From NCBI GenBank assembly GCA_000004985.1, contig GG738893.1: 64,000 bases of DNA. One strand, 5' to 3'. Below the pieces are notes generated by a model. The model was not told the DNA's origin. It was given only the letters and a program-made list of their open reading frames with translations, and did not search any database. Every line of letters begins with the position of its first letter. The first letter of the stretch is position 1. This stretch comes from Naegleria gruberi. Its lineage: Eukaryota. Positions 6,301 through 12,399 of this stretch are shown here, piece by piece. Both the position numbers and the translations under genes were made by a program.

Positions 6301-8715
6301 CTGGTTCAGAATACTATTTTTATGCAACTATTGGTTTGATGATCGTAATTGGATTGCTTCTTATCGCTTATATTCAATACGATTTATTATTCTTTAAAAG
6401 ATTAGTCAAATTAATTGAAAAGGAGCTGAACAAGGATGGTATTGGAAAAATTTATCAACAATTGAATAAGAAAACTTCTATGGAAGCTTCCTTAGATTCT
6501 AATATTGTTAGCAAATCACTTCATGCAAATGCTAGTTTAGTAATTGCAATTGCATTGCTTGCTGTGTTTATTCCATTATGTATTGGAATGTTATACTTGG
6601 AAACATACAAGAACGCAAAGAGTGCTCTATTTACTTTCACCAATGTTGGATTATCTTCAAATGTAATTGAACATTTACAGTTTGCTTCATTTTATTTGGG
6701 AGAAATTCTTACACTTTTTGGTGTAGCTCACTTATCCAATAACGATGCCAGATTGTTCAATAGCAAATTGTCAAGTGGAAATTTTGAACAAATTTACAAA
6801 TCATTGAGATATGAAACTGATTTTACTGCAGCAAATTAGTAAGTAGTTTTGGAATTTTAACAATTTACTAGAATCAATGTTCAGCCAAGAATTGATATAC
6901 GGAGATGTTACTAAACCTGATGATGATCCAGTAATTGGTTTGTATCCATCTTTGGATAAGCTACTCAAACAAGGAGTTGATAATTGTACTCTTTATTTAG
7001 AACAGCATAATTTAACTCTCACACTCAAAACGAAAATTCAGTACTGTACAGGAATTGATAAAGTAATGACTGATTTCCTAACTACCATTACACAGACCAG
7101 TGAGAATACTCGAGATTTCTATACAAAACAAAATGCTGTATTTGCTGCTAATGGAACAATTTTAGATCCAACTGAAATATTTATGGAACATTACAAGTTA
7201 AATGTAATGTCTCATCCTCTGAATGACAAACTATTGATATTCATGAATGAATTTGTTAGAGTCTCTTCAGAACTATCACTAATATTACTTTTAATATTTA
7301 CTTGTTTAGGATTTTTACTCACAGCAGTCATTGGAAGACTCATATTGGCAATGATCAAGAACAAATCAAATCAACTCTACCACACCAGAATGCTAATGAA
7401 CTATATTCCAGTAGAAATGTTAGATAGAAATGAAAAACTCAAAAATGTTGCATTATTTAACTCTTTCCCTAATGCACTAGTTGAAAAGTTGAATAGAAAA
7501 GGAAAAGAGGGTTCATCTGAAAGTGGATTTAATGGCGTTGCGAATATTATCAATTCTTCAGTTGATGGATCTGCTTTGTTAAATGAAAGTGGAGATATTG
7601 AGATTTTCAACCCAGCAGCACATCGAATGTTTAATTCAACTTCAGTCGATGTATTGGGTACAAAGCTTTGTTCTTTATTTGAGGAATCGATTCAGGAAAC
7701 TATTAGAAAGACATTTGAATCCATAATAGAGCAATCTAAGAAATCTTATAATTCTGGAGGAAATGGACTCGCTCAGGAAACATTAGAAGCTGAATGTATG
7801 AGAAGAAATCAAACTAAATTCCCTGCCAAGATTAGTCTATTCACTACTCATCTTTCAGATCGTGGAACTATTGTTGTTTGTACCATTAAGGATGTGACCT
7901 CAGAGAAGAAACAACAAGCTCTCCTTGCGGACGAAAAGAAACACTCTGATAATCTACTCAAAAACATTCTTCCAGAAAATGTCGCTTCAAGACTAAAGAA
8001 GGGAGAAACATTCATTGCTGAAAAACTTTCTGATATTACATGTTTCTTCTCAGATATGGTTGGTTTCACAAAAATCAGCTCAACCATGCAAGCTACTGAA
8101 TTGGTGAAAATGTTAAATGCAGTAGTTAATGGATTTGACAATTTGACAGAGCTTTATGACCTGGAAAAGATTAAAACCATTGGAGATGCTTACTTTTGTG
8201 TAGGTGGTCTTCATGGTTCTTCAGATCACCCAGAAAGAATGTTAAAATTTGCCATGTCAACCTTCCAAGTCATTAACGATTTTAATTCTGGAAAATTTGG
8301 AGTCATTCTAGAAAATGATAATCAACTCGATATCAGAATTGGTATCAACACAGGTTCTGCTCTTGCAGGTGTGATTGGAACCAAGAAATTTGCCTACGAT
8401 TTGTGGGGTGATACCATCAATACTGCCTCAAGAATGGAATCAACTGGTCAACCAGGAAGAGTTCAAATAAGCAGATCAACCTACGAAAGAGTTTATGATA
8501 TGGGATTGGAATTTGAGGAGAAACGAGTGGAAGTAAAAGGAAAGGGAATTATGCAAAGTTATTTATTGAGTGCACGTCATCACATAAGCACCAAGGTTGA
8601 CTTGATTATTCCAATCGAACAGAAAACACTCCAAGATTATGAAATTGACAATGAACCTTTAGAACAATTAAAACTAGATAATAACACATCGTCAAGTCAA
8701 AACTCAATGGAATAA
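3349..8715 (+). CDS. multi-pass membrane class III nucleotidyl cyclase (adenylyl/guanylyl cyclase family), 3 exons: 3349..5763, 5805..6838, 6885..8715
   Basis: Three consecutive long ORFs (3325..5778, 5811..6839, 6877..8715) are joined in frame by two introns: 5764..5804 (GTAAGT...ATAG, 41 bp) and 6839..6884 (GTAAGT...TCAG, 46 bp). The first ATG is at 3349; the track start at 3325 is TTG. Exon 1 has more than 10 hydrophobic helices. Exons 2 and 3 add more. The C-terminus is a class III cyclase homology domain (FFSDMVGFTKISS...KIKTIGDAYFCVGG...AYDLWGDTINTASRMESTG). Confidence 0.75.
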
Positions 8716-9159: not shown

Positions 9160-10007
9160 ATGTTGGGAAAGTACAATGTCAAGATGATGACTTCATCACA
9201 AAATATTGTTGAACAACCGACAAGACCAGCAATATCATCATTGGATATTCCAACAAATTATACACTCACAACTGATCCAAAATATATGAATTGTACTCAA
9301 CTTCACAAGATTAGAGATCAAAGCCAATGTGCAGCTTGCTATGCGTTTGGAGTTGCTGAAATGGTTGCTGACAGATATTGCATTTCATCTCAAGGGAAGG
9401 TCAATACCATTCTTTCACCACAATTTATTTTGAGTTGTGATGAATATGAAGGAAATTGCTATGGTGGAGATATTGGAAATACTCTTCTCTATGTTAAAAA
9501 TTATGGAATTGTTACTGATAGTTGTCTTCCATTCCTTGCTAGAAATGGCTCCAATCTCAGTTGTCCGAACAAGTGTCTCGATGGATCTAATTGGAAATTG
9601 AGATACAAGGTAAAGAATCCAAATCAAATTGCTCAAGATGATATTCAAGGAATGCAACAAAGCATTTTACAAGGTGGATCAATCATTGCTGCCTTTCAAG
9701 TTTATGAAGATTTTGCTCACTACAAGGGAGGAATATATGTTCATACAGGTGGTGCTTACATTGGTGGACATGTTGTAAAGATTGTTGGATTTGGTGAAAC
9801 TCCAAGTGGAATTCCATATTGGGTTGTTGCCAATAGGTAAGTTTATTTGTTGCTTAATATAATAATATAATATTTATTGTACCCTTTCCTGTTAATCTTG
9901 CTAGTTGGGGAGTTGACTGGGGATTATCTGGTTACTTTTATATAATTAGAGGAAAGAATGAGTGTGGATTTGAAAGTTATATTTGGCAAGCTACTCCATC
10001 TCTTTAA
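9160..10007 (+). CDS. cathepsin B-like papain-family (C1) cysteine protease, mature region, 2 exons: 9160..9836, 9905..10007; 5' signal/propeptide exon(s) unresolved
   Basis: The active-site Cys motif QCAACYAFG is present, as is the His motif GGHVVKIVGFG. After intron 9837..9904 (GTAAGT...CTAG) the C-terminus reads [27 protein letters not shown], which is typical of cathepsin B. The upstream ORF 8810..9187 is in a different frame and probably encodes the pro-region. The ATG at 8952 gives a signal-like peptide that then hits a stop. Confidence 0.6.
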
Positions 10008-10394: not shown

Positions 10395-11365
10395 ATGAAA
10401 CTCTTCCTCGCTGTTTTTTGCTTGTTGAGCGTTGTCGCTTCTGCCTATTGTTCCTTGATTGCCAGTGGTGCTAGTTTGCGTTCAACCACTGCTTTGAATA
10501 TCAGATCAGGCCCATGTACATCAAATGGTATTGTTACTAGTGTTGGTGCTGGTACTACTTTGAAGTTTACTGGTAGCGTCCAATCTGGATGTGGTTATAC
10601 ATGGTATGGTGTTGAAGTTAATGGTAAAAGAGGACATGCTGCTTCTAATTTCTTGACTGAAGTTAATAATGGAGGTGGTGGTGGTTCTAACACTGGTGCT
10701 TCTATCAGTGTTGATGCCTTGAGAAGAATTATGCCAAACTTGTCATCATCAAAGGCTAACCAATATATTGGATATTTGAACAGTGCTTTGGCTGCTGGTA
10801 ATATTAATACTTGTTGCAGAAAGAGTGCTTTCCTTGCTCAACTTGCTCACGAATCTGGTGATTTGAATTGGTTTGTTGAATTTGCTTCAGGTGCTGCTTA
10901 TGAAGGTAGAAAGGATTTGGGTAACATTTATCCTGGTGATGGTGTTAGAGTAAGTTATCTTTGACATTTTGACTTTTGACACTTTTTGACATTTTCAATT
11001 ATTATTAATTTATTAATTATATTATAGTACAAGGGTAGAGGTCCAATTCAAATTACTGGTCGTGCTAATTATCGTGCTGCTGGTCAAGCCCTCGGAATTG
11101 ATTTGGAAAATAATCCAACCAGAGCTGCTGATCCAGATGTTGGATTCCGTACTGGTAAGTAGTTAGTTGAAAACTGTTAATAATGTTTATACTAATCAAC
11201 ACAATAGCTGTTTGGTTCTGGAACTCAAGAAGTTTGAATCAATATGCTGATCAATGTAACCAATCTGGTTTTGATATCACTACCAGAAGAATTAACGGTG
11301 GTTACAATGGTAAGGCTGACAGAGATGCTCACTGGACCAGAGGTAAGAGCGTTTTGGGATGTTAA
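10395..11365 (+). CDS. secreted glycoside hydrolase family 19 (chitinase/lysozyme-like) with an N-terminal SH3b-like domain, 3 exons: 10395..10949, 11028..11154, 11208..11365
   Basis: The protein starts with a signal peptide MKLFLAVFCLLSVVASA. An SH3b-like stretch follows (ALNIRSGPCTSNGIVTSVGAGTTLKF...YTWYGVEVNGKRGHAASNFL), then a Gly linker. The GH19 catalytic motifs are [24 protein letters not shown] | [15 protein letters not shown] and INGGYNG. The introns are 10950..11027 and 11155..11207 (GTAAGT...YAG), with phases checked. Confidence 0.7.
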
Positions 11366-11503: not shown

Positions 11504-12399
11504 TTACTGGATATTTTTCTTGGGCATTACAAAATCATAAGAAAAGAACAGATTATAATTTGATTTGGGAGCAAAATAATATCCACTCACATTCTTAAAC
11601 GACATGACAGTGTAGGTTCTATGATCTCTATCTCGAAATTCATTCAATGAATAGCCACTTCCACCAAATAAAAATACATTCTTATTTAATCCTAAATAAA
11701 CATCATTCTCAGCATGGGAAATAATTTCATATTCTGATATTCGGTCATAATCTGCAGGTGATTCATACTCTTGAGTTTCTAATTCGGTATGGGAATAGGT
11801 AAATGCATTAAATTTCTGCCTCAGAAATGCTCTCTTCTTTGTAAGACAATAATTTTTCAATTCATAATCGTATGTAAAATCTTCATTCAATGGAGAAATC
11901 GATTTTGTAATCCTCTTCCAAATATTTTTCAAGTTATTGTACCAATTTGAGCAAACTGTATCAGGTCTCTGTATTAGAATATCAATAGGAGGCAAGAATT
12001 CAAATATTTCTTCCACAATTTCTGATGGCAGTAATGTAAACTGATATCCACTGACCAATGATGACAATTTAAGGGAAAATTCATCTGTGGAATCAATTGA
12101 GGTTTCAAATTTATATTTTACAATTTCTTTCAGCAATGAATTAAAAAGAAACCATACGAAATATTATCCTTTTTAAATACATTATATTGTTCCGAACAAT
12201 AATTTGCCAAATTCGTAATACATTCCGTTTGGTCGAAAGATAATTCTAGATGCTCATTTAATTTACATTTCTTTGAAATTGACTCAGAATCTTCTTGGCT
12301 TGATTCCGAATTTTCTTGTTCTTCTGCTTCTTCATCCTCTTCTTCGCTCTGCGGGGAACGATTGAGTAGTTGATCAGCCACAGTTCGATCTCTTTTCAT
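11504..12399 (-). CDS. F-box-like protein; two ORFs (12130..12399 and 11504..12136) that need a frameshift or unrecognised splice to join
   Basis: The N-terminal ORF is acidic. The second ORF contains an F-box-like LLPSEIVEEIFEFLPPIDILI...VCSNWYNNL. The frames overlap by 7 nt and I found no GT..AG intron of plausible size there. Confidence 0.4.

Follow-up and report, generated by a model that had tools for sequence, protein, structure and literature searches.

The stretch of DNA analysed here (hereafter the window) comprises 64,000 nucleotides of contig GG738893.1 from the genome assembly of Naegleria gruberi (GCA_000004985.1). At positions 10395-11365 of its plus strand it contains one copy of a gene that joins a bacterial SH3 (SH3b) domain to a catalytic domain of glycoside hydrolase family 19 (GH19). 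The spliced frame (840 nt with both introns removed) encodes 279 amino acids, and the product is residue-for-residue identical to XP_002673010.1 (EFC40266.1; D2VS08_NAEGR) of N. gruberi, which RefSeq labels as the predicted/uncharacterized protein NAEGRDRAFT_81026; the gene model of the original prediction, made from the letters of the DNA and their open reading frames (ORFs), is thus the published one. The domains follow in the order signal peptide, SH3b (Pfam SH3_3), glycine linker and compact GH19, and the parts of the gene are as follows (positions in the window):

10395-11365, plus strand: SH3b-GH19 gene, three exons, ATG at 10395 and TAA at 11363-11365
10395-10949, plus strand: exon 1, codons 1-185, with signal peptide, SH3b, glycine linker and the first half of GH19, ending in ...PGDGVR
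10395-10445, plus strand: predicted signal peptide, residues 1-17 (MKLFLAVFCLLSVVASA), with putative cleavage after A-S-A and before Y
10452-10670, plus strand: SH3b domain, residues about 20-92, with the Cys41-Cys66 pair (GPCT...GCGYTWY)
10665-10691, plus strand: flexible Gly-rich linker, residues 91-99 (NNGGGGGSN)
10692-11362, plus strand: GH19 catalytic domain, endolysin type, residues 100-279, split by both introns
10851-10853, plus strand: codon of Glu153 (in AHESGD), predicted general acid, equivalent to E49 of the endolysin SPN1S and E79 of the lysozyme C25GH19B
10878-10880, plus strand: codon of Glu162 (in FVEFASG), predicted general base, nine residues past Glu153
10950-11027, plus strand: intron 1, 78 nt, phase 0, GTAAGT...TATAG, 82% A+T
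11028-11154, plus strand: exon 2, codons 186-227 plus one base, ending in ...GFRT, with the Thr195 codon at 11055-11057
11155-11207, plus strand: intron 2, 53 nt, phase 1, GTAAGT...AATAG, 75% A+T
11208-11365, plus strand: exon 3, codons 228-279 plus TAA (...RRINGGYNG...SVLGC), with Cys244 and the C-terminal Cys279

Given domains of bacterial type in a gene annotated only as 'predicted protein', bacterial contamination, a chimeric assembly or an annotation artefact might be suspected, an explanation to which we give practically no weight. Both introns are canonical and AT-rich, and their removal restores an unbroken alignment: the spliced protein aligns across both junctions with the intronless homologue of Willaertia magna. 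The flanking genes are eukaryotic (PAS-cyclase, papain-type protease, F-box, MAPEG and mRNA cap guanine-N7 methyltransferase genes). The G+C content at third codon positions is 0.25, as compared with 0.28 +/- 0.03 in 22 long ORFs of the window, and the gene uses GGT for 29 of 37 glycines, GCT for 27 of 31 alanines and AGA for 14 of 18 arginines. Genomes of Myxococcota, the bacteria with the most similar GH19 domains (see below), are very G+C-rich. An environmental metagenome, moreover, yielded this locus separately, with both introns in place (contig ENA ERZ929261, separately assembled; 98.6% identity across the locus). Relative to N. gruberi, the coding sequence of this contig shows only three substitutions, each of them synonymous, besides a codon indel, and its introns show three substitutions and 10 indel columns over 133 nt. 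Homologues also lie on long contigs of N. lovaniensis and Willaertia. Contamination or mis-assembly of the locus is therefore excluded, as the original prediction had already concluded from the two GTAAGT introns and the signal peptide, and introns, host neighbours and host codon use together document physical integration of the gene and its adaptation to the host.

Within intron 1, the hexamer TTTGAC occurs four times in about 30 nt (TTTGACATTTTGACTTTTGACACTTTTTGAC). Eight of the indel columns between the environmental contig and N. gruberi fall in this intron, which fits variation in repeat length.

Domain architecture and catalytic type

The N-terminus combines a basic n-region with a hydrophobic core and an A-x-A site that conforms to the -3/-1 rule. 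In the AlphaFold model (mean predicted local distance difference test, pLDDT, 91.6, from a 58-sequence alignment) the signal peptide region is a helix of low pLDDT at residues 3-15. Beyond it, the linker is the sole stretch of low confidence (pLDDT below 50 at 93-99), lying between an all-beta region with seven strands at 27-90 (pLDDT 89-98) and an all-alpha domain at 106-277. The mature protein is basic, with an isoelectric point of about 9.4.

The N-terminal domain had been described as SH3b-like, and a profile search bears this out: Pfam SH3_3 (PF08239) matches residues 33-87 (E 9.2e-8; 32.6 bits, with a curated cut-off of 27), structures 2krs and 4krt are matched in the PDB, and the all-beta fold agrees with membership of the bacterial SH3 family. 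From the family annotation, this domain may be a peptidoglycan-binding module. A profile of the heterolobosean-type SH3b was searched against 1.84 billion protein representatives and matched 13,250 proteins; these were ranked by whole-protein score, so that multi-repeat bacterial proteins fill the top 150 and single-domain orthologues are not listed there, for which reason domains were re-scored separately. All seven top proteins that were scanned against Pfam carry SH3_3, and six of them look bacterial, suggesting that the SH3b is bacterial in type. Several of the bacterial-looking proteins carry Amidase_2, subtilase or polysaccharide deacetylase domains beside it, and the best single bacterial repeats share about 40-44% identity with the query.

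Pfam Glyco_hydro_19 (PF00182) matches residues 135-236 (E 5.3e-15; 56.3 bits, with a cut-off of 25.5). The motifs AHESGD (151-156) and INGGYNG (256-262) lie where the original prediction had put them, and a second motif spans residues 169-200, crossing intron 1. Glu153 and Glu162 are invariant in 125 of 125 aligned homologues, and their spacing equals that of E49/E58 in SPN1S and E79/E88 in C25GH19B; Thr195, which corresponds to T130 of endolysins and is predicted to coordinate the water molecule, is nearly invariant. With the family profile, two catalytic glutamates and a water-positioning threonine, the domain belongs to GH19.

Within GH19, all comparisons agree on an endolysin type, not a plant-chitinase type, as far as sequence and predicted fold can tell. 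PHROG endolysin families match at 7.5e-51 (phrog_181) and 8.4e-40, and the top PDB matches by sequence are 9eoi (PaGH19Lys), 9ms7 (PWe2 endolysin) and 9hnv (E 1e-27 to 1e-29). By fold (Foldseek), 50 GH19 structures of the PDB match at E <=0.001, the best being 9ms7 (template modelling, TM, score 0.91 on the target, root-mean-square deviation 1.6 A, 40% identity), with 9eoi and SPN1S (4ok7) ranking next. The GH19 Engineering Database (GH19ED) defines an endolysin (ELYS) signature of I33, R109, G118 and L/Y173 in SPN1S numbering; from motif register and alignment to 4ok7, I137, R172 and G183 match, i.e., three of four residues, a level also seen in 10 of 12 characterised endolysins. The domain is compact (about 180 residues), superposes on the loopless endolysins and lacks the loop signature of chitinases. 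The assignment of the original prediction to bacterial and phage endolysins rather than to plant class I/II chitinases is thus upheld by the PHROG, PDB and Foldseek comparisons.

The plant class I/II/IV and Streptomyces GH19 chitinases have the GH family and the catalytic core in common with the Naegleria protein. However, plant chitinases align only partially, over 55-100 residues (1e-12 to 1e-15), and the chitinase loops are missing, as is the loop-3 disulfide: there is no counterpart of the loop-3 pair Cys97-Cys105, and no cysteine between residues 141 and 244. The Pfam scan of the protein found no CBM18 (hevein) or CBM5/12 and no other chitin-binding module, which places it outside the plant class I/II chitinases.

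The enzyme might nevertheless be a chitinase that acts on the cyst wall of Naegleria itself (in encystment or excystment) or on fungal prey, and not on bacterial peptidoglycan. The Pfam family is named 'Chitinase class I', metagenomic homologues are labelled 'predicted chitinase' by the Joint Genome Institute (JGI), a survey of kinetoplastid chitinases from 2026 counts four N. gruberi proteins among the GH19 'chitinases' and describes their catalytic and binding residues as conserved, and GH19 chitinases of Streptomyces and moss are similar in structure (TM about 0.69). We consider this unlikely, because endolysin profiles score far above chitinase ones, because of the signature residues and the missing disulfide just described, because SH3b is a peptidoglycan-binding type of module whose nearest bacterial relatives sit on Amidase_2 wall hydrolases, and because the closest characterised relatives are all muramidases, of which those tested on chitin were inactive. 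PaGH19Lys cleaves the bond that links N-acetylmuramic acid (MurNAc) to N-acetylglucosamine (GlcNAc) and is inactive on chitin, and the SH3b-GH19 proteins of Trichomonas are muramidases, not chitinases (PMC12612818). C25GH19B of Corallococcus silvisoli is a lysozyme that works best at pH 4.5-5.0, binds peptidoglycan and lyses Gram-positive as well as Gram-negative cells (PMC9098779); a homologue with 64% identity to the query (P0104) shares its E79/E88 numbering.

The phage and prophage endolysins (PWe2, PaGH19Lys, SPN1S and the GH19 of mycobacteriophage LysA) have the same fold and catalytic residues as the Naegleria protein at 26-40% identity. It differs from them in that it is not phage-encoded and not associated with holin or spanin but would be exported by a eukaryotic signal peptide, and from SPN1S in the absence of the three-helix insertion. 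As the product of a chromosomal eukaryotic gene with introns and eukaryotic neighbours, it is not a phage endolysin in the strict sense, though it probably works like one.

Relatives, origin and history of the gene

We searched 5.8 billion clustered proteins and considered the best 120 matches, in which each cluster appears under the name of its representative only. The very best matches are eukaryotic (Naegleria, Willaertia and contigs of uncultured protists) and all belong to the endolysin-type family. They comprise a tandem pair of N. lovaniensis (69% and 64% identity) and a protein of Willaertia magna (67%), and the matches listed also include GH19-only paralogues in Naegleria and Willaertia and about 25 metagenomic proteins that have a signal peptide and a C-terminal ...LGC and, in many cases, an SH3b. 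The eukaryotic and eukaryote-like sequences (n=37) share 64-85% identity with the query. Naegleria and Willaertia are the only eukaryotes named among the matches listed, in addition to contigs whose gene content is eukaryotic; further carriers according to the literature are Diplonema and metamonads. The homologue search thus supports a bacterial affinity in part: the closest non-eukaryotes are bacterial and overwhelmingly Myxococcota (up to 71%), but the very best matches are eukaryotic. Since the latter are of endolysin type and not chitinases, they do not place the gene among the eukaryotic GH19 chitinases. An apparent absence from N. fowleri was dropped, because the names given are those of cluster representatives, as the query's own cluster shows.

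Two of the metagenomic homologues sit on contigs of eukaryotic gene content, one (Ga0606064_0003, 320 kb) with leishmanolysin, DAG kinase, F-box/LRR and ankyrin genes, the other with an RWP-RK gene and a split HSP70; contigs from uncultured carriers include Ga0606064_0003 and Ga0606108_0398. The homologue on Ga0606064_0003 (P0014, 'predicted chitinase'; L004 8001-8993) has a 57-nt in-frame intron (GTATGC...TTTTAG). The prokaryotic gene caller rendered this intron as 19 spurious residues, and the metagenome annotation is wrong in both the type of organism and the protein.

The named bacteria among the 120 best matches are nearly all Myxococcota, with 60-73% identity over GH19; carriers include Archangium, Cystobacter, Stigmatella, Hyalangium, Melittangium, Corallococcus and Pyxidicoccus, in which LysM or PG_binding_1 repeats precede GH19. 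A scan of 185,579 bacteria and archaea, with each species represented by a single genome, gave a similar picture: all 80 best loci match residues about 88-279 only, and roughly the first 50 of them belong nearly without exception to Myxococcota (56-71% identity), followed by Pyrinomonadaceae (50-57%) and then by cyanobacteria and proteobacteria (up to 56%). Identity therefore declines from Myxococcota over Acidobacteriota and other bacteria to phages. The nearest non-eukaryote to the N. gruberi domain is a myxococcotal sequence in 126 of 150 bootstrap resamplings. In neighbour-joining (NJ) trees, which were built with bootstrap from two samplings (about 171-176 columns), the point estimate with the wider bacterial sample unites the eukaryotic sequences of the Cys type (see below) in one clade among Myxococcota.

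A bacteriophage or other virus with a GH19 endolysin, e.g., a phage in ingested prey, might have been the source instead. The family is primarily a phage lysis family, with the domain in 1,666 of 50,697 phage genomes, mostly annotated as endolysin, and the best phage match (53% identity) is Mx1, which infects Myxococcus and lies among the myxobacterial sequences in the point-estimate tree. However, neither the phage genomes nor the 2.9 million viral contigs of IMG/VR exceed 53% identity over the whole domain, whereas chromosomal myxobacterial genes reach 71%, and we regard a viral source as rather improbable.

Even less probable, and very much so, is an ancestrally eukaryotic gene that Myxococcota obtained from protists, or vertical inheritance accompanied by many losses. 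The closest sequences are indeed the eukaryotic ones, and the rooting of the tree is uncertain. However, endolysin-type GH19 occurs in numerous bacterial phyla and in over 1,600 phages, along a gradient of similarity, whereas its eukaryotic carriers appear to be few and patchy; the Cys pairs and the SH3b fusion described below occur in no bacterial sequence examined, the opposite of what a transfer from eukaryote to bacterium would lead one to expect; and the intronless Willaertia gene and the differing intron positions point to late gain of introns. A transfer from a Myxococcota-like donor to a eukaryote is the best reading of these comparisons.

The architecture may have a different history from its parts. 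The arrangement had been taken as characteristic of bacterial and phage cell-wall hydrolases, and this holds for the two modules, both of bacterial type, but not for their pairing: no SH3b lies within 1.5 kb of GH19 at any of the 80 closest loci in bacteria or the 80 closest in viruses. According to GH19ED, only LysM and PG_binding_1 are recurrently attached to endolysin-type GH19. SH3b-GH19 of this subtype was therefore seen only in eukaryotic or eukaryote-like sequences, and the fusion appears to have been put together in eukaryotes from two modules of bacterial type, and not to be a wholesale import of a bacterial architecture. At one locus (L139), an apparent extension of the match to residues 54-277 proved spurious.

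There are two SH3b subtypes among the eukaryotic and eukaryote-like SH3b-GH19 sequences. The subtype of N. gruberi has a Cys pair (GPCT...GCGYTWY) where the bacterial repeats have Ser or Gly. A metagenomic protein (P0170, on a 926-bp JGI contig) carries this Cys-bearing subtype twice (GPCT...CGYTW), ahead of a Peptidase_C39_2-like domain, which suggests that a eukaryote-type SH3b module may have been shuffled among wall-targeting enzymes. Further cysteines were added in the catalytic domain: C140 and C279 occur together in 24 eukaryote-like sequences, C141 and C244 are added in eight of eight heterolobosean sequences, and none of the four (Cys140, 141, 244 and 279) was found in 91 bacterial, phage and other sequences. 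This pattern suggests two added disulfides, which would suit a secreted or lysosomal enzyme.

The introns bear on the timing. Intron 1 of N. gruberi agrees in position and phase (0) with intron 2 of one N. lovaniensis paralogue (P0001), whereas intron 2 is unique to N. gruberi, being present neither in the N. lovaniensis paralogues nor in Willaertia, whose gene is intronless. A phase-1 intron at FL|AQ is common to both N. lovaniensis paralogues and missing in N. gruberi, and the intron of P0014 from an uncultured protist occupies a third position. The expectation that relatives share the intron positions is accordingly borne out for one of the two introns, the other being lineage-specific. At least one intron was thus in place before N. 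gruberi and N. lovaniensis diverged and others are later, and therefore the transfer was not recent. If the heterolobosean sequences are monophyletic, the transfer would predate the split between Naegleria and Willaertia.

Combining these lines of evidence, we conclude, with a probability of roughly 0.7, that this is a nuclear gene for a secreted, disulfide-stabilised, cationic peptidoglycan hydrolase, whose GH19 module was obtained by horizontal transfer from a Myxococcota-like bacterial lysozyme and has since been naturalised. Within this conclusion we infer the substrate, the cellular location, the disulfide pairing, the direction and donor of the transfer, and where the fusion took place. 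Several points weigh against it. Although the point-estimate tree nests the eukaryotic sequences among Myxococcota, as a bacterial origin would predict, bootstrap values are 15% for the Cys-type eukaryotic clade, 40% for Heterolobosea and below 50% along the backbone, and the NJ trees contain no well-supported bacterial sister to the eukaryotic sequences. Because of this low support, any statement on the donor, on how often the gene was transferred or on whether this preceded the Naegleria-Willaertia split is tentative. The dominance of Myxococcota is partly an effect of the choice of genomes for sequencing. The signal peptide was judged by eye from the sequence against the -3/-1 rule, and the disulfide pairing is predicted from the co-occurrence of cysteines. 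At the fourth signature position (SPN1S 173, L/Y) the query has N238, adjoined by an invariant L237, and the signature residues have a statistical, not a mechanistic, basis. GH19 also includes chitinases and bifunctional enzymes.

More tentatively, and we consider it possible rather than probable, a single ancient transfer from Myxococcota to eukaryotes might have founded the whole family, i.e., the heterolobosean genes and the approximately 25 sequences of uncultured protists, with eukaryotes adding the SH3b and one or two disulfides and passing the gene among protists. If so, this would be a 'designer lysozyme' made by protists and convergent on an architecture that Trichomonas built independently, and P0170 would hint at a shuffled eukaryotic toolkit of wall-targeting enzymes. 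A firm claim on one versus several transfers, or on a specific donor genus, was rejected because of the low support along the NJ backbone.

Four other sequences with a signal peptide (P0038, P0041, P0048 and P0103) form a separate GH19 clade with 100% bootstrap support. Their N-terminal module is a different SH3b-like or Cys-rich one, they end in ...LGA, and they are without Cys140 and Cys279. This clade may represent another eukaryotic acquisition.

Likely function and known counterparts

An antibacterial or bacteriolytic feeding enzyme had been proposed, and an antibacterial role seems well motivated. The most probable role would be to digest or kill bacteria, whether in phagolysosomes, outside the cell or both, in view of the characterised homologues, the predicted signal peptide, the putative wall-binding domain, the cationic charge of the protein and the fact that Naegleria feeds on bacteria. 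The signal peptide would route the protein via the endoplasmic reticulum to phagolysosomes and/or the medium, where the SH3b might dock it on the bacterial sacculus. GH19 would then cleave the beta-1,4 bond between MurNAc and GlcNAc by an inverting mechanism, with Glu153 as acid, Glu162 as base and Thr195 holding the water, and the opened wall would make the bacterial prey accessible to digestion. Naturalisation would have involved a eukaryotic signal peptide, host codon usage, lineage-specific introns and new Cys pairs, with the N-terminal SH3b taking the place of the LysM or PG_binding_1 modules of bacterial relatives. The myxobacterial GH19 lysozymes resemble the Naegleria protein in the catalytic domain (56-73% identity, about 180 residues), in the same Glu-x8-Glu dyad and in being secreted; they differ in having LysM or PG_binding_1 repeats or no module, but never this SH3b, and they are without Cys pairs and introns.

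The closest counterpart in architecture is the class B GH19 of Trichomonas (TGA_001274700, TVAGG3_0677660), which, according to Hart et al. (2025, PMC12612818), consists of signal peptide, SH3b and GH19, was acquired laterally from bacteria and may serve as an antibacterial tool. Both are protist genes with a signal peptide, an N-terminal SH3b and an endolysin-like GH19 with two catalytic glutamates. However, the Trichomonas proteins have two copies of SH3b, whereas that of N. gruberi has one, and their hosts belong to Metamonada and Heterolobosea, respectively. No Trichomonas protein is among the 120 best matches, a list filled by Myxococcota, which suggests that Trichomonas and Naegleria may have made separate acquisitions. 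Hart et al. (PMC12612818) regarded SH3b as unique to the GH19s of Trichomonas; the N. gruberi gene and its relatives contradict this.

Free-living amoebae are major grazers of bacteria, and their bacteriolytic enzymes are poorly catalogued. Naegleria, like Trichomonas, carries a GH19 of bacterial/phage type fused to SH3b, and its nearest bacterial relatives are lytic enzymes of myxobacteria, soil bacteria that are likewise predators of bacteria. Lateral gain of peptidoglycan hydrolases by protists is already established, so that this is no new category of biology. Three views in the literature would need correction: these proteins are labelled 'chitinases' or 'uncharacterized', GH19ED confines endolysin-type GH19 to phages and bacteria, and SH3b-GH19 has been called unique to Trichomonas. 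The gene is not discussed in the papers on the Naegleria pangenome and the N. fowleri genome. What is added here is the endolysin assignment, the affinity to Myxococcota, the fusion and Cys pairs seen in eukaryotes only, the intron history and the wider family of uncultured protists. A compact enzyme, predicted to be disulfide-stabilised and probably acid-active, would also be a candidate antibacterial.

Neighbouring genes and related loci

Genes upstream of the SH3b-GH19 gene in the window include:

6877-8715, plus strand: PAS-adenylate/guanylate cyclase, an intronless ORF of 612 amino acids with PAS domains and a cyclase catalytic domain
9160 to about 10005, plus strand: papain-family (Peptidase_C1, cathepsin-like) cysteine protease, about 390 bp upstream of the GH19 gene

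The exact translation of the cyclase ORF was not found in the protein collection, and the public gene model probably differs. The protease gene carries a GTAAGT intron of its own, starting near 9847. Two genes for probable secreted or lysosomal hydrolases, the protease and the GH19 enzyme, therefore adjoin each other; an F-box gene follows downstream on the opposite strand.

Beyond the gene itself, blastn and tblastx revealed no synteny between the locus of N. gruberi and that of N. lovaniensis. In N. lovaniensis, the SH3b-GH19 genes form the tandem pair on PYSW02000023.1 (L001 6001-7084 and 7576-8677), as compared with one copy in the N. gruberi window. The GH19-only paralogues of N. lovaniensis and Willaertia (P0013, P0015, P0016 and P0018) have signal peptides as well. 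Downstream of the gene, the environmental contig with 98.6% identity is longer by about 275 bases at window position ~11536 and is without about 267 bases of window positions 12127-12393, inside or next to the minus-strand F-box gene; both differences could be indels or small mobile elements.

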